Assembly (NCBI GenBank): GCA_964565075.1 | Contig: CAZMCK010000002.1 | Location: 27,603 to 91,602 of the forward strand | Source: an uncultured Dehalococcoidaceae bacterium | GTDB taxonomy: Bacteria > Chloroflexota > Dehalococcoidia > UBA2979 | DNA: 64,000 nucleotides | Reading direction: 5' to 3' | Part shown: piece by piece, positions 10,192-54,726 of the stretch | Layout of the letters: each line of letters starts with the position of its first letter | Position numbering within the stretch: the stretch's first letter is position 1 | Translations under genes and position numbers: made by a program | The notes under the pieces: model-generated | Told to the model about the DNA's origin: nothing | What the model saw: the letters and a program-made list of their open reading frames with translations, nothing else | Database searches by the model: none

Positions 10192-10443
10192 ACCGCCGCT
10201 CCCCCGACAACCCGAGGGGCCTCGATCCGGGCCTGTGACGCTGATCGGTGCGCCTCCCAGTGACGCCGCCGGGTCGTGAGCGCGACTCGCGGTCGTGTTA
10301 TGTGCCCCTCGTAGCGCACCGCTCATGGCGTGGGCCGTTCTGCTAGACTGCGCCGCGACAGGAGCCGCTCCGCGGGCAGGTGCCCCGCGTTGCGGGGAAT
10401 CGCGGGCGGCTACCCGCACGAGGCACGACGCAGGAGGTGCAGA

Positions 10444-11301
10444 TTGACGCAAGACAGATACGGCGGAAACGTCGACGCCCCGATCGAGCGGACCCCGCTG
10501 CCGGACTGGCCGTACGAGGAACTCCTCTACGAGACCATCGACGACGGGCGCATCGCGCTGATCACCATGAACCGCCCGGAGCGCATGAACTCCAGCGACC
10601 CCGAGATGGGGCAGCGCTGGTACGACGCCTGGACGACGTTCGCCAACGACGACGAGCAGTGGGTCGCGATTGTCACCGGCGCCGGTGACCGTGCCTTCTC
10701 GGCCGGCCAGGACCTCAAGATCCGCGCCGAGCTGGAGCAGGAGGGCGGCGACGCCCCGTACCAGCGGCGGGCCCCGAACGTCACGCCCATCGGCGAGAAG
10801 CTCGGCTGCTGGAAGCCGACCATCGCGGCCATCAACGGCTTCGCGATCGCCGGTGGCTGGGCGACGGCGCAGAACTGCACGTTCCGCATCGCCGAAGAGC
10901 ACGCGCAGATGAACATCGCCGAGGCGCGGTGGAACCAGGGCGCGGGCTTCGTGGCGTGGCTGCCGCGGCTCATGCACACGGCGCACGCCCTTGAGGTCTG
11001 CATCATGGGCGACCGGCGCGTCAGCGCGCAGCGCGCCTACGAGATGGGCTTCGTCAACAAGGTGGTGCCGAAGGGCCAGTCGGTCGAGGAGGCCGTGGAC
11101 TGGGCGCGCACCATCACGCGGATGGCTCCGCGCGCGGTGCAGAACTTCCACCAGCTGATCTACCAGTGCTGGAACCAGAGCATCCCGGAGTCCCAGCAGA
11201 CTGCGGCGGCGCTCGAGTTCAACCTCCGCGGCATGGAGGACTCGCTCGAGGGCCCGCTGGCCTTCGCCGAGAAGCGGCCGGCGGTCTTCAAGAACCGCTA
11301 G
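10444..11301 (+). CDS. enoyl-CoA hydratase/isomerase family protein (crotonase paralog 1)
   Basis: TTG at 10444, 7 nt after AGGAGG, within ORF 10330..11301. Crotonase motifs ITMNRPERMN, TGAGDRAFSAGQDL and INGFAIAGG. The C-terminus ...EGPLAFAEKR is shared with the other three paralogs. Confidence 0.85.
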   Translation: MTQDRYGGNVDAPIERTPLPDWPYEELLYETIDDGRIALITMNRPERMNSSDPEMGQRWYDAWTTFANDDEQWVAIVTGAGDRAFSAGQDLKIRAELEQEGGDAPYQRRAPNVTPIGEKLGCWKPTIAAINGFAIAGGWATAQNCTFRIAEEHAQMNIAEARWNQGAGFVAWLPRLMHTAHALEVCIMGDRRVSAQRAYEMGFVNKVVPKGQSVEEAVDWARTITRMAPRAVQNFHQLIYQCWNQSIPESQQTAAALEFNLRGMEDSLEGPLAFAEKRPAVFKNR

Positions 11302-11320
11302 TCCGCAGCAAGTGAACAAA

Positions 11321-11350
11321 CATAAGGGCGGCCCTTGGGCCGCCCTTATG
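11321..11350. terminator. perfect 14-bp-stem hairpin between convergent genes (bidirectional terminator candidate)
   Basis: CATAAGGGCGGCCC-TT-GGGCCGCCCTTATG, located 20 nt after the crotonase stop and 40 nt after the stop of the opposing gene. Confidence 0.6.
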
Positions 11351-11391
11351 GTGTGCCGGGGTCGGCGGGAGCGGGTTACCTACATAACAGG

Positions 11392-12006
11392 CTAGTCGCC
11401 GAGGATGGTGTCGTAGCCGAGCGAGCGGATCTCCTCGACGTACTCGGCGCGCCACCCGGCGGCGGGGATGCGGCGGCGCAGGCTGCGGAACTCGGCGTGG
11501 TAGCGGAGGTACTCCTCCTCCAGGCGCCGACGCCACGCCGCCTCCTCGCGGGCCGCGTCCGGCGCGACCTCCTCGAAGGGGAGCTCGAACTGGTCCTCGG
11601 TGAGGTCGTACTCGTCACGCCAGTACTCGGCGAGGTAGTCGAGCGAGTCTTCCAGGTCGCGCCGGCAGTCCAGCATGTAGGTCTCGAGGAGTTGCCCGGC
11701 GTCGGCGAGGGTGCCGCGCAGGCGCTCGCTGCGCGCGCAGTCAACGCAGAGCGTGGTGAGCTTGCGCGCCTCGCAGGCGTCACCGCGCGGGCAGTTCTGG
11801 TGGCGGGGGGCAAACGGGGAGAGCGACGGCTTTCGCGAGTACCCGACGACGAGTGCATCGCAGTCGGCCTCACAGCGCGGGCAGGTGAGGCGACGCGCGA
11901 AGATCTGGTTGATCGCGTTCTCCCAGTCGATCTGCACGCCGCACGCTCCGATCAGTGGATGCTGCTCCGGCCGAGCGACGTTCCGTGGGTGGCCGCGAGC
12001 CGTCAA
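11392..12006 (-). CDS. hypothetical Cys-rich protein (putative zinc-binding)
   Basis: 204-aa ORF. Cysteine clusters CPRCEADC, CPRGDAC and CVDCARSE, followed by an acidic C-terminal half. The start codon is uncertain. Confidence 0.45.
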   Translation of the reverse strand: MTARGHPRNVARPEQHPLIGACGVQIDWENAINQIFARRLTCPRCEADCDALVVGYSRKPSLSPFAPRHQNCPRGDACEARKLTTLCVDCARSERLRGTLADAGQLLETYMLDCRRDLEDSLDYLAEYWRDEYDLTEDQFELPFEEVAPDAAREEAAWRRRLEEEYLRYHAEFRSLRRRIPAAGWRAEYVEEIRSLGYDTILGD

Positions 12007-12061
12007 TCGATGGTACGCGGGGCGCGAGAACTGTCAACGCGAGCGGGAGCGCTCTGGTGGG

Positions 12062-12592
12062 CTACGCCCGGACCGCCTCGATCCACCCCGGAGCCAGGTC
12101 GCGGCTGTAGCGGCCGCTCTGCCCCGGCATCTCCTCGATCTCCACCTCGATGCGCGTGAGGTTGCCGTGCTCACCCGCCGCCAGCGAGGCGAGCACGCGC
12201 CCGGCGACCCACTCCGCGAGCAGCTCTGCCGTGCTGTTCTCGATGGGCAGTGCGACGACGTCGCTCGCCGGGAAGCGGTAATCGCGGTCGCCGAAGCCGA
12301 CCGTCCAGCCGGCAGCGTCCTCGGTGATGTCGAGGAGGCGCGAGTCATGCTGGAGCAGGAAACGGTGGTCCAGCTCCTCGCACGCCTCGCGGACGGCGCG
12401 CTTGAGCACGCTGAAGTCGATGACCCACCGGTCGTCGGTGAGGGCGCCGTCGACACGGCAGCTTGCGATGTAGTTGTGCCCGTGGAGCGGCTCGAGGTCG
12501 TCGCCGAGCGTCGCCATGTGCGCTGCGGCGAAGCGCAGCCGGACGCCCTGGACGGTGACGGAGCGGGAGACGTCGAGGATGTCGTCAGTCAT
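12062..12592 (-). CDS. 6-pyruvoyl-tetrahydropterin synthase / QueD-family protein
   Basis: Internal ATG (MTDDILDV..) of ORF 12062..12850. PTPS motifs FAAAHM and LHGHNY plus a conserved Cys. GAGGA ribosome-binding site. Confidence 0.7.
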   Translation of the reverse strand: MTDDILDVSRSVTVQGVRLRFAAAHMATLGDDLEPLHGHNYIASCRVDGALTDDRWVIDFSVLKRAVREACEELDHRFLLQHDSRLLDITEDAAGWTVGFGDRDYRFPASDVVALPIENSTAELLAEWVAGRVLASLAAGEHGNLTRIEVEIEEMPGQSGRYSRDLAPGWIEAVRA

Positions 12593-12633
12593 GCGGTCCT
12601 CGGTTGCTGTGTCCAGCCCGGCGCTACATAACA

Positions 12634-12659
12634 GAATGGCAGCCGTTCGGCTGCCATTC
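12634..12659. terminator. perfect 12-bp-stem hairpin downstream of the ferredoxin-oxidoreductase operon
   Basis: GAATGGCAGCCG-TT-CGGCTGCCATTC, immediately adjacent to the CTACATAACAG repeat. Confidence 0.55.
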
Positions 12660-12716
12660 CAGTTGTGCGCTGCGAGGTGAGCGACGGGCGCGCGTGGCGC
12701 CCGCTGCTCCGCTCGT

Positions 12717-13589
12717 CTAGATCGCCAGCGTGTCGAGCATCTCCTCGACGGTGCGCTGCTTCGCCTTGGTGCGCTCGCGCGCTTCGGCGAGGCGCTCATG
12801 CATCGGCGTGCTCTCGCGTGCGCGGTAGAGCAGGCCGATGGGGATGCCACCTTGCTGCGCGATGTCGAGCGCGCTGGCGAGGTTCGACGGGTCGTGGCTC
12901 TCCGGGATGTCCCACGCGCCGGGGTCGATGCCCTTCGCCGGGTTGCCCTTCAGCGCCTCGTACGTGTCGTTGTACGTGGTGCAGGGCGACTGGACGTGGA
13001 CCATCGAGAATCCCGGGTAGTCCATGGCGTCGCTGATGTGCTGCGCCAGGACGCGCGGCTGCGTCGAGATGGCCGAGACGACGTAGCCGACGCCGTAGGA
13101 GAGGTACAGCAGCAGCGGGTTGATCTGGTCGTCCAGCTTCCCGTACGGGGTCGTCGGGGTGACCATCCCGAACTCGGTGGTCGGCGAGGCCTGGCCCTTG
13201 GTGAGGCCGTACACGCCGTTGTCCATGATGATGCAGGTCACATCCAGGTTGCGCTTCGCGGCCGGGGCGATGTGCTCGCCGCCGATGCTCAGGAAGTCAC
13301 CGTCGCCGGCGACGACCACCACGTTCAGGTCGGGCCGCCCGGACTTGATGCCGAGCGCGACCGGGAGCGTGCGGCCGTGGATGCCGTGGATGCCGAAGGG
13401 CTGCGGGCCCTCCTGCAGGTGCACGAGGTTCCCGGAGCAGCCGATGCCGGCCACCATCACGGTGTCCTCGATCGGCCGGCTCTTCGTGTTCACCCAGTCG
13501 GCGAGCGCCAGCTCGATGGAGCGGACGACGGCGAAGTCGCCGCAGCCGGGGCACCACTTGAAGTCGTAGTCGGGGTTTCGCTTGGTCAT
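12717..13589 (-). CDS. 2-oxoacid:ferredoxin oxidoreductase beta subunit (TPP-binding)
   Basis: 290 aa with CPGCGDF and the TPP-binding GDGD motif. ATGA start/stop overlap with the alpha subunit gene. Confidence 0.9.
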   Translation of the reverse strand: MTKRNPDYDFKWCPGCGDFAVVRSIELALADWVNTKSRPIEDTVMVAGIGCSGNLVHLQEGPQPFGIHGIHGRTLPVALGIKSGRPDLNVVVVAGDGDFLSIGGEHIAPAAKRNLDVTCIIMDNGVYGLTKGQASPTTEFGMVTPTTPYGKLDDQINPLLLYLSYGVGYVVSAISTQPRVLAQHISDAMDYPGFSMVHVQSPCTTYNDTYEALKGNPAKGIDPGAWDIPESHDPSNLASALDIAQQGGIPIGLLYRARESTPMHERLAEARERTKAKQRTVEEMLDTLAI

Positions 13590-15292
13590 ACCGTGGCCAG
13601 CCTTTCGGCTCCGCTGCGTGCACCGACCCGCGTGACAAGGTCACTGACCTTGAACGGCAGTCCGGTGATCTGCGTGACTGATTCGGCCTTCACTCCCTGC
13701 TGCCGCAGCCAGCCGGAGAACTGGCCGAGGTAGTTGAGCTCCGGCACGATGACCAGCTCCTTCGTGCGCAACTCTTCCAGCAACGCCGATGGGAGCGGGT
13801 TCAGATACATGGTGTAGTACCAGCCGATGTCGACGCCGGCGTCTCGCAGCTGCTCGAACGCCGCGCGCGAGGTCCCCTTCGCGCCGCCCCACGGCATGAT
13901 GGCCACGGAGGCGCCGCTGTTCTCGGCCTCAAAGTCGCTCTCGTCCAGCAGTTCGAGCTTGCCGAACCGCCGGCGCGTCATCGGCAGGTGCGTGTGCGGC
14001 TGGTGCACGGTGTCGCCCTGCTCGTCGTGCTCGGAGGCGTTGGCGACGTAGGCGCCGGGGCCGCCGGGCACCGGGAACGGGCTGAGCGTCTCACCGGCGT
14101 AGCGCCGGTTGCCGTCGGCGCCTTCCGACACCACGCGGTTCTCGATGGTGAATGCGGTCGGGTCGGGGCGCACGATGTCCTGCGCCCGCTCGGCGATCTG
14201 CATCTCCGTGAGCAGGATGACCGGGCCCTGGTACCGCTCGGCCCAGTTGAGGGACATGATGCCGGCCTTGAAGCACTCCTCGACGGTGCCGGGGGCGATG
14301 ACGGGGAGCCGCATGTCGCCGTGGCCCGGGTTGAGGCACGCCAGCAGGTCCGACTGCTCGGTCTTCGTCGGCAGGCCGGTGGCCGGGCCACCGCGCTGCA
14401 CGTCGACGACCACGCAGGGGATCTCCGCCATCCACGCGAACCCGAGTCCCTCGCCCATGAGGCTGAAGCCGGGGCCGGCCGTGGAGGTCATCGCCTTCTT
14501 GCCGGCGTAGCCCGCGCCGATGATGGCGGAGATCGACTCGATCTCCGAGCTGGCCTGCACCACCGACTTGTCGTGCCCGTGGAGGTTGCCCTCCATGAAG
14601 ACGAGGATGGTGGTCGCCGGCGAGATCGGGTAGCCGACGAAGACGTCAAGGCCGGCCGCGATGGCGCCGAGCGAGAGGGCGTCGTTGCCCTTGATCACGA
14701 CGCGCGGCTGCGTCTCCTCCGGCGGGTCCTCGAGGTCCGCGACCTTGAAGCCGGTCTTGGTGACCTCGTCGAAGCCCAGCCCGAGGGCCTGGATGTTCGC
14801 GCGGATGATCTCTTCGTCGTTCGGGCGGCCGCGCGTGAAGCGGACCGTGATGAAGTCCTCGAAGTAGTCCGGCGGCATCCCGCCGAGCGCGGCGACCGCG
14901 CCGATGACGACCATGTTCGCGGCGCGGGGGTTACCCGTGGAGCGAGCGAGCTCGTCGACGGCAAGGCCGATGGCGTTGCCATTCGACTCGAGCTCGAAGT
15001 CCTCGGCGTTGTAGACCAGCACGCCGCCATCGCGGAGATCGCTGATGTGGTCCTCGTAGGCCTCACGGTTGAGGACGACGAGCACATCGAGCGCGTCTCC
15101 GTCGTGGAGGATCGGCTCTGTGGAGATCCGGGTCTGGGCCCACGTGGGGCCGCCCTTGATCTGCGAGGGATAGGTGGCATACGTCTGTACGTGGTAGCCC
15201 ACGCGCGCTGCCGCCTCGGCGAGCCCCTCGGCTGCCGTGACCTGACCCTGTCCGCCCTCGCCGGCGAACCTGACGATGAGATCCGTACTCAT
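13586..15292 (-). CDS. 2-oxoacid:ferredoxin oxidoreductase alpha subunit (fused gamma-alpha)
   Basis: 568 aa, pyruvate/ketoisovalerate/2-oxoglutarate oxidoreductase alpha family. Coupled to the beta subunit gene. Confidence 0.9.
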   Translation of the reverse strand: MSTDLIVRFAGEGGQGQVTAAEGLAEAAARVGYHVQTYATYPSQIKGGPTWAQTRISTEPILHDGDALDVLVVLNREAYEDHISDLRDGGVLVYNAEDFELESNGNAIGLAVDELARSTGNPRAANMVVIGAVAALGGMPPDYFEDFITVRFTRGRPNDEEIIRANIQALGLGFDEVTKTGFKVADLEDPPEETQPRVVIKGNDALSLGAIAAGLDVFVGYPISPATTILVFMEGNLHGHDKSVVQASSEIESISAIIGAGYAGKKAMTSTAGPGFSLMGEGLGFAWMAEIPCVVVDVQRGGPATGLPTKTEQSDLLACLNPGHGDMRLPVIAPGTVEECFKAGIMSLNWAERYQGPVILLTEMQIAERAQDIVRPDPTAFTIENRVVSEGADGNRRYAGETLSPFPVPGGPGAYVANASEHDEQGDTVHQPHTHLPMTRRRFGKLELLDESDFEAENSGASVAIMPWGGAKGTSRAAFEQLRDAGVDIGWYYTMYLNPLPSALLEELRTKELVIVPELNYLGQFSGWLRQQGVKAESVTQITGLPFKVSDLVTRVGARSGAERLATV

Positions 15293-15641: not shown

Positions 15642-15902
15642 GTGGTCAAGACCTACGTGCTGATCGTGACCGACCCCGGCCGCACGCGTCGCGTCACCGC
15701 CGCACTGGCCGACGTACCGCACGTCGAGGCCGTCAACGAGGTGATGGGCCCGTACGACATCGTCGTCGAAATCGTGACCGAGAGCCTCACCGACATCCCC
15801 CCGATCCTCTCCGACCACATCCGCGTCCTCGAAGGCATCGAGTCGACCACGTCGCTCGTCGCGTTCCCCCAGCAGGCCCCGCCAGGCGAGGCGTCGTCGT
15901 AG
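15642..15902 (+). CDS. stand-alone Lrp/AsnC-type ligand-binding (RAM) domain protein
   Basis: GTG 6 nt after GGAG, within ORF 15396..15902. Product VKTYVLIVTDPG...VEAVNEVMGPYDIVVEIV... The upstream part of the ORF is Arg-rich junk. Confidence 0.5.
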   Translation: MVKTYVLIVTDPGRTRRVTAALADVPHVEAVNEVMGPYDIVVEIVTESLTDIPPILSDHIRVLEGIESTTSLVAFPQQAPPGEASS

Positions 15903-16781
15903 GTGGGCGTACACCTCGACCGCTGGCGGGCGCTCGTACGCGAGCGCCGCGAACAGATGGACCGGCACCTCGCCGCCCTGGGCGGGCCTCCCGAGGACTG
16001 GTGGGCGGGGCGCGCGGGACTGTTCACGCGCGGCATCGGCGACGCGGCGGCAGCGCCGCCCCCGGGCCTCGAGGCGATCGTCGGGCGGCTCGAGCGGCAT
16101 CACACCGTCCTCGATGTCGGGGCGGGCGCCGGCCGCTACGCCGTGCCGCTCTCACGCGCCGTGCGCCACATCACGCTCGTCGAGCCGTCGCCGGCGATGG
16201 CGCAGCTTGCCCGCGACGAGTTCGAGCGCCTCGGCCGCGGCAACTGGACGCTCGTCGAGCGCGAGTGGCTGGAGGCCGAGGACCTCGACCCGGCGTCGGC
16301 CGTGCTGCTCGCCAACGTGCTGAACCCGCACGAGGACCTCGAGGCGTGGATCGACAAGGCGCTGTCGCTGGCTCGCGGCTGGCTGTTCATCGTCCACGGC
16401 TCCATCCCCGAGATGACGCCCCACATGCAGCGCGTCGCGCGGGCACTCCACGGCGAGGAGCGCGTGCCGCAGCCGGGCATCAGCCACCTCATCCCGGCCC
16501 TGCACGACCTGGACATCTACCCCGACATAATGATGTTCGAACGTCGCTTCGCACGGTCCTACGCCGACGCCGGCGAGGCGGCCCGCGAGATCGCCTCGAC
16601 GCTGCTGGTCGAGCCGACCGGGGACGCGCTGGGGCGCATCCGGGAGATCGTCGAGCCGGACCTGCGGCTGCGTGCGGACGGCCGTGTCGCGCCGCCGGCG
16701 GTCACGGCGCCGCACGCGCTGCTGATCTGGCGCACCGCCGGGCGAGGCGATGGCCGCCGCTGGCGATGGCTGCGAGACTAG
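15903..16781 (+). CDS. class I SAM-dependent methyltransferase
   Basis: GTG start abutting the previous stop. Motif I reads VLDVGAGAGRY. Confidence 0.7.
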   Translation: MGVHLDRWRALVRERREQMDRHLAALGGPPEDWWAGRAGLFTRGIGDAAAAPPPGLEAIVGRLERHHTVLDVGAGAGRYAVPLSRAVRHITLVEPSPAMAQLARDEFERLGRGNWTLVEREWLEAEDLDPASAVLLANVLNPHEDLEAWIDKALSLARGWLFIVHGSIPEMTPHMQRVARALHGEERVPQPGISHLIPALHDLDIYPDIMMFERRFARSYADAGEAAREIASTLLVEPTGDALGRIREIVEPDLRLRADGRVAPPAVTAPHALLIWRTAGRGDGRRWRWLRD

Positions 16782-16799
16782 AGCCGGAAGGGAGCGTCC

Positions 16800-17282
16800 A
16801 TGCCTATCACCCTCGGCGCCGGGGATCCGGCCCCCACGTTCGAGCTGTCCGACCAGGACGGCGAGGTGCATCGCCTGGCGGACTACCAGGGGCAGACGGT
16901 GGTCCTCTATTTCTACCCTCGGGACTTCACGCCGGGCTGCACGACCCAGGCCTGCTCGCTCCGTGACACTCACCAGGAGATCGCCGACGAGGGCGCGGTC
17001 GTCCTCGGCGTCTCCACCGACGACGCCGAGTCGCACCAGAAGTTCCGCGAGGAGCACGGCTTGCCGTTCCCGCTGCTGGTCGACGCGGAGGCGAAGGTCT
17101 CCACGCGATACGGCGCGTGGGGCGAGAAGACGCTCTACGGCCGCAAGAGCATCGGCATGACGCGCGCGACGTTCGTGATCGGCCCGAGCGGGCGGCTGCT
17201 CAAGGTGTGGAAGCGCGCCCGCGCCGCCGACCACGGCGAGGCAGTCCTGAAGGCGCTGCGCGACCTCGTCGGCCACGCGTAG
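16800..17282 (+). CDS. bcp: thioredoxin-dependent peroxiredoxin Bcp
   Basis: 160 aa with FYPRDFTPGCTTQ and a resolving Cys. GGAAGGGAG ribosome-binding site. Confidence 0.9.
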   Translation: MPITLGAGDPAPTFELSDQDGEVHRLADYQGQTVVLYFYPRDFTPGCTTQACSLRDTHQEIADEGAVVLGVSTDDAESHQKFREEHGLPFPLLVDAEAKVSTRYGAWGEKTLYGRKSIGMTRATFVIGPSGRLLKVWKRARAADHGEAVLKALRDLVGHA

Positions 17283-21409: not shown

Positions 21410-21766
21410 TGGGGACGAAAGGGGTCGACAGCGGTTAACGGACACGGTTTGCGGGTCGAGGCGCCACCAACCTCGTAAAACAGGTGGCACCTTCATAACA
21501 GGCGATAACGAACTCGCCCTCGCCGCTTAGACAGCGGTGACGTTGTCCCCGGCTCTCGCCTGGCGAGCCGGGAGACAGCGCCGAAATGCCGGGCTGCAAT
21601 CGCGGGCGCGCGTCACAGGCCTCGCGACCAAGACTACTGCGACTGGCCGGCAGCCTCCCTCGTCAGCGCAGGGATGCCGGTGAGAACCCGCCGCTGACTA
21701 CGCCCGTAGCAGATCCGTGACGAAGGCTTGCTGGACGGGGAGTTCAATTCTCCCCCGTCTCCACCA
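21410..21766 (+). ncRNA. ssrA: tmRNA (ssrA)
   Basis: 5' GGGGACGAAAGGGGTCGAC pairs with 3' ...CGTCTCCACCA to form a 7-bp acceptor stem. T-arm GGACGGGGAGTTCAATTCTCCCCCGTC. Internal tag reading frame ...GGC GAT AAC GAA CTC GCC CTC GCC GCT TAG (..NELALAA*). Lies directly after smpB. Confidence 0.85.
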
Positions 21767-52293: not shown

Positions 52294-54726
52294 GTGCCTG
52301 ACACCGCACTGGACGGTCTCCGCATCATCGAGCTCGCCGAAGGGGTGGCCGGCCCCTACTGCGGCAAGCTCTTCGCCGACCTCGGCGCCGACGTCATCAA
52401 GGTCGAGCCGCCCGAGGGCGACCGCACGCGCCGGGAGGGCCCGTTCAAGGACGGGGTACCCAACCCGGAGGGCAGCGGGCTCTTCCTCTACCTCAACACC
52501 AACAAGCGGGGCGTCACCGCCGACGTGACCACGGACGAGGGCCGCGAGGCCCTCCTCGGCCTGCTCGCCGGCGCTGACGCGCTCGTCACCGACATGCACG
52601 AGGACGACCTGCGCGCACTCGGGCTCGACTACGCCGACCTGCGCGAGCGCTTTCCAGCCCTCGTCTTCTCCTCGCTCACGCCGTTCGGCCGTGGCGGCCC
52701 GCACGGCGCGTACCGGGGCAATGCGTTCCTCGCGTACCACGCCAGCGGGATGAGCTGGGAGACGCCGACGAACCAGGTGCGCGACCCGGCCACCCAGCCA
52801 CCCCTCGCGCCCGGGAACCCGCAGGCCGACTACCTCACGGGCTCCACCGGGGCCGCCGCGACGCTGGCCGCGATCTTCCAGCGCGAGTCGACCGGCCGTG
52901 GGCAGCTCGTCGACATCTCCGGGCAGGAGGCGAACGCCAACCACATCCGCACGACGATCTCATCCGTGATCCACACGCCCGACCTCGTTCCGGGTCGCGA
53001 GAAGAGCAACTTCGACTTCCTCGTGCCGTGTAGTGACGGTTATGTCTTCCTCACCCCGTACAACTTCGACCACTGGTGGGAGCGCCTCCAGCACCTCATG
53101 GGCGACCCGGAGTGGGCGAAGAGCGAGGCCTTCGCCACCACGGCCGACCGCGCCCTCAACTGCGACGCGATCGAGCCGCTCGTGGCCCTCTGGTCGGCGG
53201 AGCACACCCGCGCGGAGCTGTACCAGATGTCGCTCGACATCGGGATCCCGTGCTTCCCGGTGTACTCGCCCGCCGAGATGATGGAGTCGGCGCAGTTCGC
53301 GTTCCGCGACTTCCTCGAGTCCGTCGAGGACCCCGAGGCGGGCTCGTTCGTCCGCCCGGGCCCGGCAGCGCTGCTCTCGCGGACGCCGTACCGGCAGGAC
53401 AGGCGCGCGCCGCGTCTCGGCGAGCACAACGCCGAGTTGCTCGCGCAGCCCGCCGCCGAGCCCTCGCCCGCGCCGCCCGGCGACCAGCGACCCGAGTACC
53501 GCAGGGGCACGGGCAACCTGCCGCTGAGCGGGGTGCGCGTGGTCGACTTCGGGTGGATCCTCTCCGTCCCGCACTCGACGGCCTGGCTGGGCACACTTGG
53601 CGCCGAGGTGATCCGCGTCGAGTCCGAGCAGCGCCTCGACCTGCTGCGCGCCATGGGCATGCAGCGCGGCTCGAGCGGGATTCACGGGCTCAACCGCTCG
53701 GGGCCGTTCAACGGCCTCAACTACAGCAAGCACGGCGTGACGCTGAACCTCCAGACCGACCGCGGCAAGGAGCTCGCGAAGGAGCTGATCAGCCGCGCCG
53801 ACATCGTCACGATGAACTACGCGGCCGGGGTGGCCGAGCGACTCGGCCTCGGCTACGAGGACCTCACGGCCATCAAGCCCGACCTCATCATGCTGTCGGG
53901 CTCCCCCCTCGGGCAGACCGGGCCGGAGGCGCACTCGACCGGCTGGGGCCCGACGACGCTCGCCTACACGATGCTGCCGTATATCACCGGCTACCGCGGC
54001 GGGACGCCCAGCTCGATGGGCGGCTCCTACCCGGACTTCGTCGTCGGCGTGCACATGGCGTTCGCCATGATGAGCGCGCTGCGCCACCGTGAGCGCACCG
54101 GCCACGGCCAGCACATCGATGTCGCGATGGGCGAGACCGTCGTGGCGATGACGCCCGAGCCGCTCCTGCAGTGGACGATGCTCGGCGTCGACCCGGTGAT
54201 GCTCGGCAACCGCGATCCCGGGTGCGCGCCGCAGGGCGCCTACCCGTCGGCCGGCGAGGACCGCTGGGTCGCCGTCTCCGTCGAGGACGACGCGATGTGG
54301 GCGCGGCTGCGAGGCGCCCTCGGCGACCCCGCGTGGGCGCGGGACCCCGGGCTCGAGACCCTCGAGGGCCGGCACGCGCGCCACGACGACATCGACCGTG
54401 AGCTCGGCGCCTGGACCGCCCAGCGCACTGCGTACGAGGCCGCTGACGCACTCCAGCGCGCCGGCGTGGCGGCCACGGCCGTGCTCGACGCGGCGGGGCT
54501 CCTCGACGACCCGCAGCTTCGCCACCGCGGCTTCTTCGTGGACATCGACCATCCCGAGATCGGGGTGACCGCGTCCGCGGGCATCCCGGTGCGCTTCAGC
54601 GAGACGCAGCTCCACTACGGTTCGGCGCCGCTGCTGGGCGAGCACAACCGCGAGGTGTTCACGGAGCTCGTCGGCCTCGAGGCGGCGGAGTTCGAGCGGC
54701 TTGCCGCGGAGGACGTGATCGTCTAG
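52294..54726 (+). CDS. double-domain CoA-transferase family III (CaiB/BaiF) fusion protein, copy 1
   Basis: 810 aa. GTG after a GGGAGGGA ribosome-binding site. Two complete CaiB-type modules in tandem (N-termini LRIIELAEGVAGPYCGKLFADLGADVIKVE and VRVVDFGWILSVPHSTAWLGTLGAEVIRVE). Confidence 0.85.
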   Translation: MPDTALDGLRIIELAEGVAGPYCGKLFADLGADVIKVEPPEGDRTRREGPFKDGVPNPEGSGLFLYLNTNKRGVTADVTTDEGREALLGLLAGADALVTDMHEDDLRALGLDYADLRERFPALVFSSLTPFGRGGPHGAYRGNAFLAYHASGMSWETPTNQVRDPATQPPLAPGNPQADYLTGSTGAAATLAAIFQRESTGRGQLVDISGQEANANHIRTTISSVIHTPDLVPGREKSNFDFLVPCSDGYVFLTPYNFDHWWERLQHLMGDPEWAKSEAFATTADRALNCDAIEPLVALWSAEHTRAELYQMSLDIGIPCFPVYSPAEMMESAQFAFRDFLESVEDPEAGSFVRPGPAALLSRTPYRQDRRAPRLGEHNAELLAQPAAEPSPAPPGDQRPEYRRGTGNLPLSGVRVVDFGWILSVPHSTAWLGTLGAEVIRVESEQRLDLLRAMGMQRGSSGIHGLNRSGPFNGLNYSKHGVTLNLQTDRGKELAKELISRADIVTMNYAAGVAERLGLGYEDLTAIKPDLIMLSGSPLGQTGPEAHSTGWGPTTLAYTMLPYITGYRGGTPSSMGGSYPDFVVGVHMAFAMMSALRHRERTGHGQHIDVAMGETVVAMTPEPLLQWTMLGVDPVMLGNRDPGCAPQGAYPSAGEDRWVAVSVEDDAMWARLRGALGDPAWARDPGLETLEGRHARHDDIDRELGAWTAQRTAYEAADALQRAGVAATAVLDAAGLLDDPQLRHRGFFVDIDHPEIGVTASAGIPVRFSETQLHYGSAPLLGEHNREVFTELVGLEAAEFERLAAEDVIV

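Follow-up and report, generated by a model that had tools for sequence, protein, structure and literature searches.

Organization of the PTPS-CysR locus

The 64-kb window analysed here (the whole stretch of DNA under study, from contig CAZMCK010000002.1 of an uncultured Dehalococcoidaceae bacterium) carries an 11-nt word, CTACATAACAG, in two exact plus-strand copies of the same orientation, at 11380-11390 and 12624-12634, just where an original prediction made from the sequence alone had placed them. These two 11-mers, termed S4 and S3, respectively, and read here on the minus strand, are two instances of one short cis-element, and they bracket a PTPS-family gene and a gene for a Cys-rich protein, which we name CysR. 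On the gene strand (−) the order is korA, korB, the hairpins hp0 and hpA, S3, PTPS, the CysR promoter, CysR, S4, and the hairpin hpB, with the following coordinates.

13586-15292, minus strand: korA, 2-oxoacid:ferredoxin oxidoreductase alpha subunit
12717-13589, minus strand: korB, 2-oxoacid:ferredoxin oxidoreductase beta subunit
12684..12704, minus strand: hairpin hp0, directly 3' of the korB stop; sequence varies in relatives, structure mostly kept
12633..12660, minus strand: hairpin hpA, 3' of korB; 12-bp stem, tetraloop, and U-rich tail UUCUGUUAUGU containing S3
12624..12634, minus strand: motif copy S3, reads CTGTTATGTAG; core GTTATGTAG at 12632->12624
12062-12592, minus strand: PTPS-family gene, 176 aa; PF01242, E 4e-18
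12010..12037, minus strand: predicted CysR promoter, TTGACA-16 nt-TACCAT, in the 124-nt PTPS-CysR spacer
11392..11937, minus strand: CysR (Cys-rich gene; name given here), GTG start at 11937, 181 aa
11380..11390, minus strand: motif copy S4, reads CTGTTATGTAG; core GTTATGTAG at 11388->11380
11321..11350, both strands: hairpin hpB, 13-14-bp stem with perfect 14-nt arms; flagged by the terminator scan
10444..11301, plus strand: enoyl-CoA hydratase gene, convergent with CysR, likely TTG start at 10444; Pfam ECH_1

S3 starts at the foot of the korB hairpin hpA, its first two bases closing the stem, and ends 31 nt before the PTPS ATG; this 31-nt stretch holds a GAGGA ribosome-binding site. S4 follows the CysR stop (11394-11392) after one base, its core starting 3 nt past the stop, and is separated from hpB by 29 nt. 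The earlier claim of a hairpin beside each copy therefore holds for the 12624 copy, which abuts hpA with a 2-nt overlap, and only loosely for the 11380 copy. Since the order is hairpin-motif at one end and motif-29 nt-hairpin at the other, "hairpin plus motif" is not a repeated unit; hpA and hpB share no sequence.

At up to one mismatch, CTACATAACAG has three matches in the window against 0.06 expected, and 0/100 dinucleotide-preserving shuffles reach three; the third match, with one mismatch, falls within the tmRNA gene. The 7-mer core TTATGTA occurs in the 64 kb at just the two motif positions (0.10 expected). These figures agree with the earlier view that chance recurrence is improbable, with the caveat that other exact 11-12-mers recur locally, e.g. 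the 12-mer ATCTCCTCGACG at 11429 and 12739, both inside genes. What sets the repeat apart from chance is that it is A+T-rich, that it is intergenic and, most of all, that relatives conserve it. Near matches elsewhere were discarded, at 10297 for want of conservation in relatives, at 53039 and 55556 as coding, and at 21491 as lying within the tmRNA gene; the relaxed 7-mer GTTATGT was too unspecific, with many matches coding for Gly-Tyr-Val. A literature search for the motif sequence strings returned primers and vector sequences only.

Conservation of the motif in relatives

For comparison, 26 Dehalococcoidia genome loci were retrieved via CysR, and two more (L073 and L074) were fetched via korB; individual loci are referred to by their L numbers. 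The exact core GTTATGTAG stands at both homologous positions in L001, L002, L004, L005, and L006, and GTTATGTAA stands at S4 in L027, L028, and L073. At S3, 11/11 positions are invariant (100% identical) in 7 genomes, compared with 39% pairwise identity in the next 25 columns. The invariant blocks in the korB-PTPS alignment (7 genomes) are the hpA stem, TTCTGTTATGTAG, and the ribosome-binding site with the ATG. At S4, TTATGTA is invariant in 7 genomes and the 9-mer core has 92% identity, compared with 39% for the 30 columns that follow; the whole 9-mer is identical in 6/8 genomes, L028 having an A/G difference at the ninth base and L003 two changes. The variable stretch after S4 often forms a hairpin of its own, of different sequence in each genome. 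Purifying selection acts on the motif at both sites. S3 has been destroyed by an insertion in L003, where S4 reads CTTATGTAAC, which is the A form of the L027/L028 S4 except for its first base; this single event hints at either coupled sites or a fragile one.

Terminators around the motif

The hairpin hpB is a bidirectional intrinsic terminator common to CysR (−) and the convergent enoyl-CoA hydratase gene (+). Its stem, GGGCGGCCC, is conserved in relatives, and it is followed by TTTGTTCACT, the tail flagged by the terminator scan, and, on the gene strand after S4, by UGUUUGUU. Both hpB and hpA have the G+C-rich stem-loop and U-rich tract that define an intrinsic terminator, hpA falling just short of the scan's 5-T-in-8 rule, and hpA is likely an intrinsic terminator or attenuator between korB and PTPS. 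The hpA stem is present in the minimum free energy fold, and across relatives all of its cells pair, with one compensatory pair (UA-to-GC, in L028) and a freely varying loop sequence; in hp0, 84% of cells are paired and 2 pairs are changed on both sides.

The hpA stem core GGCAGCC/GGCUGCC also lies 3' of korB in sister clades, where it carries other T-rich tails (TCGTTCGTTG, TTGCTT), so that S3 clearly arose from a T-rich tail that the korB hairpin had ancestrally; S3 probably still serves as that tail. One alternative is that the repeat is a terminator tail plus a coincidence, S3 being the U/A-rich korB terminator tail and S4 an unrelated A+T-rich patch after a stop codon. The sister-clade tails and the UUCUGUUAUGU tail after hpA, with 7 U in 11 nt, fit such an origin, as does the placement of both copies among terminators: S3 forms the T-rich tail of the 12-bp, G+C-rich hairpin downstream of korB, as in intrinsic terminators generally, and S4 lies within a terminator cluster common to convergent genes, as bidirectional terminators do. 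As a full explanation we nevertheless consider it quite unlikely. The 9-mer is conserved base by base beyond the needs of a U-tract, and a tail has no use for its invariant ATGTAG, which extends to 13 nt from the stem; S4 precedes its hairpins and has none before it, yet its 9-mer is kept in 6/8 genomes; and an identical A+T-rich 9-mer conserved at two footprints, together with the same 10-mer in sister clades (see below), is far beyond chance. Of the repeated regulatory or terminator module suggested earlier, what survives is a short motif that is repeated, under purifying selection, and beside terminators; the hairpins are not repeated.

Promoters and the motif

The predicted CysR promoter scores 10/12 in the promoter scan and fits the sigma-70 definition. 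Both of its hexamers are invariant in 7 genomes in which their surroundings are scrambled, and the same pattern is found in L074 and L026. A conserved promoter of its own makes CysR a transcription unit separate from PTPS. Separate sharp footprints are thus seen at TTGACA-16-TACCAT before CysR and at TGCTAGACT before the hydratase gene; since canonical promoters here are conserved as their own, different footprints, the motif is a distinct class of element.

The motif could itself be a non-canonical promoter core, with S3 as a -10/start-site element for PTPS after the korB terminator and S4 starting a short or antisense transcript. S3 is the sole conserved block between hpA and the PTPS Shine-Dalgarno sequence, PTPS would need a promoter there if hpA terminates efficiently, the variable 30-36-nt distance to the ATG fits a 5' untranslated region (5'-UTR), and in L004, L006, and L028 a good -10 hexamer, TAGATT or TAGAAT, begins with the motif's TAG. 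In the window, L001, and L002, however, this hexamer is TAGCGC, which is no -10, while TATGTA lacks the T at -7, no -35 element is present, the DNA upstream being a hairpin with a variable loop, and a TG extension is not kept at S4. A promoter at S4 would fire straight into two hairpins, with an intervening sequence that is not conserved; sister clades do without a korB-PTPS promoter, so read-through expression is ancestral; and the promoter scan finds the CysR promoter only. We therefore regard a promoter function as unlikely. Known promoter classes were likewise rejected: for sigma-70 or extended -10 promoters, the scan finds none at either copy, the -7 T is missing, and the -35 position coincides with the variable loop of the hairpin; for extracytoplasmic function (ECF) promoters (GGAAT-N18-GTT, or the AAC/CGT types; by eye), the spacing is 23 nt and GGAAT is not kept in L028; and for sigma-54 (by eye), the GG-N10-GC match merely follows from the hairpin palindrome.

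The same word in sister clades

A 10-mer near-palindrome, GTTATGTAAC, occurs at two sites in a sister clade (L013 and L017, partly L014 and L016), around a two-gene unit of an Lrp-like RAM-domain gene and a Bcp peroxiredoxin gene that lies beyond korA on the opposite strand, at 3-6 kb from PTPS-CysR. One site precedes the Lrp-like gene, with GTTATGTAAC 33-40 nt upstream of a conserved TATGAT, and its core ACATAAC is invariant across L007-L017; the other follows the Bcp gene, 9-21 nt past its stop. The sites, which carry GTTATGTAAC or the core ACATAAC, are as follows.

L013, 218-227 and 2142-2151: paired, flanking the two-gene unit
L017, 161-170 and 1039-1048: paired, flanking the two-gene unit
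L014, 1048: further site
L016, 2332: further site
L074, ~1209: further site
L018, 1576: further site

In L074 and L018, ACATAAC follows the Bcp stop and has no partner site; pairing is thus frequent but not obligatory. An IS481-like transposase open reading frame (ORF) with an integrase core lies between the Bcp and Lrp-like genes of L013 (817-1779), and this insertion widens the distance between the paired motifs from 0.9 to 1.9 kb. Within 548 kb of related loci, the matches to TTATGTA[AG] (about 0.7 expected by chance, by a hand estimate) are all border sites bar two, one at the first base of L016, where the context is unreadable, and one, in L026, a locus of lower GC, that is intergenic and precedes CysR by 190 nt. 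A profile of 21 sites has G in 18/21, TTATGTA in 21/21, A or G (A8/G13) at the following position, and C in 16/21, giving the consensus G-TTATGTA-R-C. This is an imperfect form of the 4-2-4 dyad GTTA-TG-TAAC, which is perfect in L013, L017, and the S4 of L027/L028.

The motif is antisense to the Lrp-like and Bcp genes in sister clades and sense to PTPS and CysR in the window clade. Occurrence in both orientations relative to the genes is possible for a reader of double-stranded DNA and not for a reader of single-stranded RNA, which bears on the alternative that the motif is an RNA-level element, GUUAUGUAG, in the PTPS 5'-UTR and the CysR 3'-UTR, serving as a site for an RNA-binding protein or RNase or as a start-stop ORF (AUG-UAG/AUG-UAA). 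The window-clade copies are indeed both on the sense strand, at positions expected to be transcribed, and position 9 varies between A and G only, keeping UAA or UAG after the AUG. In sister clades, however, the word runs antisense to the genes it flanks and lies ahead of their putative promoter, and the stop codon is lost in the S2 variants GTTATGTCC and GTTATGTCG; the AUG has no Shine-Dalgarno sequence before it; PTPS and CysR are transcribed as separate units, given the promoter of CysR; and the element has neither a conserved pairing partner nor a match in Rfam. A function in RNA is accordingly improbable, and a minimal start-stop ORF, which fits the window clade, was rejected because it fails at the sister-clade sites. 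Rfam searches of the locus (10800-13200, E up to 10) gave generic terminator-hairpin look-alikes only, far below gathering scores, and at gathering thresholds the whole window yields the tmRNA only; no riboswitch of the preQ1 or THF type, as occur close to pterin genes, was matched.

Ancestry of the bracketed genes

The original prediction had offered, as one reading, a small inserted cassette carrying att-like direct repeats, to be recognized by empty sites in syntenic relatives and undone by relatives with the same genes and no repeats. The order korA-korB-PTPS-CysR is kept in 23/26 loci, down to ~60% protein identity, and the repeat is absent from most loci with the conserved gene order (L007-L023, L074). 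Sequence identity of PTPS and CysR drops in step with that of korAB across relatives. The two loci fetched via korB, the only ones obtained independently of CysR, both carry the two genes: L073 (93% identical) has the arrangement of the window, and L074 (84% identical) has korA-korB-PTPS-CysR followed directly by a ThiS-like gene. No empty site was seen in these two or in the CysR-derived loci. In L020 and L022 the korB-PTPS spacer is ~35 nt or less, which implies that PTPS was ancestrally the third gene of the korA-korB operon. The hydratase gene is a neighbour of CysR in the window clade only; elsewhere CysR is followed by different genes. Syntenic relatives that carry both genes without the repeats refute the cassette interpretation, and the pattern of direct repeats bracketing two genes is not a mobile cassette here.

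Recombination sites as such, whether att-like or made by target-site duplication at the ends of a two-gene cassette that was inserted or could be excised, are extremely improbable. In their favour, the motif is directly repeated at either end of a two-gene segment, the word also brackets a second such segment in L013 and L017, the insertion breakpoint in L003 lies inside S3, and TTATGT resembles the inner part of the XerD arms of dif sites. Set against these points are an ancestral gene order kept in clades that lack the repeats, the absence of empty sites at the loci compared, including the two derived via korB, a base composition that is not anomalous (GC 0.69-0.70 both inside the bracketed segment and in its flanks), and the unpaired single sites of L074 and L018. 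No terminal inverted repeats are found inside the motif copies, no recombinase gene lies beside the segment, and no integrase or transposase was seen among the neighbours tested (the korA/korB, enoyl-CoA hydratase, ThiS-like, and Mo-oxidoreductase genes). The conserved word is also only 9-10 nt long, whereas dif and attC sites need at least 28 nt.

Direct repeats that bracket genes with hairpins near, and a GTAG after a hairpin-rich region, are reminiscent both of attC or dif cassettes and of repetitive extragenic palindromic (REP) elements and bacterial interspersed mosaic elements (BIMEs). Unlike attC and dif cassettes, however, the window holds genes that are ancestral and syntenic without repeats, and a word of 9-10 nt compared with 28-140 nt; unlike REP elements and BIMEs, its hairpins are mutually unrelated and it has two copies in 64 kb as opposed to hundreds per genome. 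Two TTATGTA words in 64 kb and unrelated hairpins likewise speak against the dispersed REP-like element that the original prediction had proposed to look for. Compared by eye with these elements, the locus has the wrong orientation and copy number for REP GTAG-plus-hairpin units, the wrong core order and too short a site for integron attC cores (GTTRRRY/RYYYAAC), and TTATGT alone in common with a dif/Xer arm; no recombinase or REP-associated tyrosine transposase (RAYT) gene was seen at the locus.

The PTPS-family and Cys-rich proteins

The bracketed segment holds exactly two minus-strand genes, as predicted, although the Cys-rich protein is 181 aa and not 204 aa long. The PTPS-family protein matches PF01242 with 65.9 bits (cut-off 22.4) and falls below the 89.25 cut-off of the QueD equivalog TIGR03367 (NCBIfam), with 56.7 bits. 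Its closest solved relatives are the Plasmodium PTPS structures PDB 2a0s and 1y13 (E 2e-21). It resembles Plasmodium-type/PTPS-III-like homologues in its PF01242 fold family, its Zn-binding His triad motif (AAAH ... LHGHNY), and the replacement of the catalytic Cys by Glu (LEPLHGH), as in Plasmodium PTPS. It differs from them in being only ~30-35% identical (by eye) and in that its gene lies in a 2-oxoacid:ferredoxin oxidoreductase operon and not in a known folate or queuosine context.

The true CysR start is almost certainly the GTG at 11937, because all of its ~100 homologues are ~181 aa long and align from this GTG. These homologues come from Dehalococcoidia/Chloroflexota metagenome-assembled genomes only, several of them from sponges. 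Seven Cys residues are invariant (C19, C22, C49, C55, C64, C67, and C91), with His or Cys at position 46, a pattern that suggests two metal sites. CysR has no Pfam, NCBIfam, or PDB sequence match. The AlphaFold (AF2) model is confident (pLDDT 89, pTM 0.84) and predicts a beta/alpha part, rich in Cys, at the N terminus and a bundle of helices at the C terminus; no close fold match to it was found.

Candidate binding sites for a DNA-binding protein

The base-by-base conservation of the motif, its partial palindrome, its rarity, and its occurrence in either orientation make recognition as double-stranded DNA the best supported mode of action, and a 4-2-4 dyad is typical of dimeric DNA binders. 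S3 and S4 could well be a pair of binding sites for a sequence-specific double-stranded-DNA-binding protein at the borders of transcription units, a proposal that we make tentatively from the sequence comparisons; both protein recognition of the motif as DNA and its regulatory consequence are inferred, not observed. S3 is positioned between the korB terminator hairpin and the PTPS ribosome-binding site, and S4 just past the CysR stop, in front of the terminators shared with the convergent hydratase gene. From these positions a bound protein might regulate or insulate the PTPS-CysR segment: it could block korAB read-through into PTPS, keep transcription from crossing the convergent junction, or hold the intervening 1.24 kb in a loop.

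Several observations weigh against such binding sites. No cognate binding protein was identified and no transcription-factor gene is linked to the locus; ten base pairs are short for an operator, and the dyad in the window is imperfect, GTTATGTAGC at S3 having one departure and GTTATGTAGG at S4 two. S4 follows a gene and precedes none, an uncommon place for a classical operator. Part of the conservation of S3 could be explained by its being a U-rich terminator tail, and that of the sister-clade sites may come partly from overlap with the -35-like hexamers TGGACA or GTTACA. The site positions that are independent number only four.

The motif is nonetheless a conserved cis-element of a familiar kind, a new instance in a poorly studied lineage. 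Paired or auxiliary operators (lac O1/O2, gal OE/OI, and the deo operators) and chromosome-organizing sites (matS, GTGACRNYGTCAC; the SlmA-binding site, GTGAGTACTCAC) are, like the motif, short, partly palindromic, selected, and of low copy number. As in paired operators, the motif copies lie 0.9-1.2 kb apart around a transcription unit, in an orientation independent of gene direction. In contrast to operators, no cognate protein was identified for the window motif, its dyad is imperfect and only 10 bp long, one copy is past the last gene and not near a promoter, and its looping or roadblock action is putative. Among known boxes, the Zur-box and the Deinococcus radiation-desiccation response motif (RDRM) were rejected, since the resemblance is to a half-site and the second half-site is absent.

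A bolder extension, which we regard as quite improbable, is that GTTATGTARC would be the recognition word of a novel Dehalococcoidia DNA-binding factor that marks transcription-unit borders as an insulator or loop anchor, and that separate lineages would have acquired it again and again, as pairs placed on either side of different two-gene units in one neighbourhood, Lrp-like/Bcp in one clade and PTPS/CysR in another. The binding-site reading, if right, would provide a clean phylogenetic footprint of a regulator in uncultured sponge- and marine-associated Dehalococcoidia, for which there is almost no cis-regulatory information, and would tie together a Cys-less PTPS homologue and a Dehalococcoidia-only seven-Cys protein beside a 2-oxoacid:ferredoxin oxidoreductase operon. 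The main value of the locus is negative, in that a pattern of direct repeats around two genes looks convincing and yet is no mobile cassette.

Other features of the window and of related loci

The korA and korB products match the Pfam families POR, POR_N, and TPP_enzyme_C. Divergent from korA, the window (15642-17282, plus strand) holds genes for a stand-alone Lrp/AsnC RAM-domain protein (86 aa, without a helix-turn-helix), a methyltransferase, and a Bcp peroxiredoxin. The window clade has the methyltransferase gene, as does L074 in the form of an unannotated ORF of matching size and position, but the L012-L018 loci lack it. The hydratase gene, called as a 285-aa gene in L073, is preceded at 10339-10457 (plus strand) by a conserved extended -10 (TGCTAGACT) and then a strongly conserved leader, G+C-rich and ~95 nt long, that precedes the likely TTG start at 10444; this leader is conserved in L004-L006, where the DNA upstream is scrambled. 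It has no Rfam match, and RNAalifold predicts stems in it with no compensatory pairs (4 sequences).

In L003 (2941-4788) an inserted 615-aa UvrD-like helicase ORF separates the korB hairpin from PTPS; the insertion has its breakpoint within S3. Three loci carry an antisense Uma2-family (DUF820) endonuclease gene in the PTPS-CysR interval (L003 5331-5966, L007 5281-5868, and L011 4850-5437).

The tmRNA gene of the window (21411-21766, plus strand) encodes the tag GDNELALAA, and the one-mismatch copy of the motif, CTTCATAACAG at 21491-21501, lies immediately 5' of its resume codon. Against the motif as it would appear in the PTPS and CysR mRNAs, this stretch is complementary at 10/11 positions; pairing between them was considered and rejected, the complementarity being probably due to chance. 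The coding near matches at 53039 and 55556 (plus strand) belong to two ORFs ~2.5 kb apart, whose near-identical stretches, GACTTCCTCGTGCC and GGTTATGTCTTCCTCACCCCGTACAAC, indicate that they are tandem paralogues.

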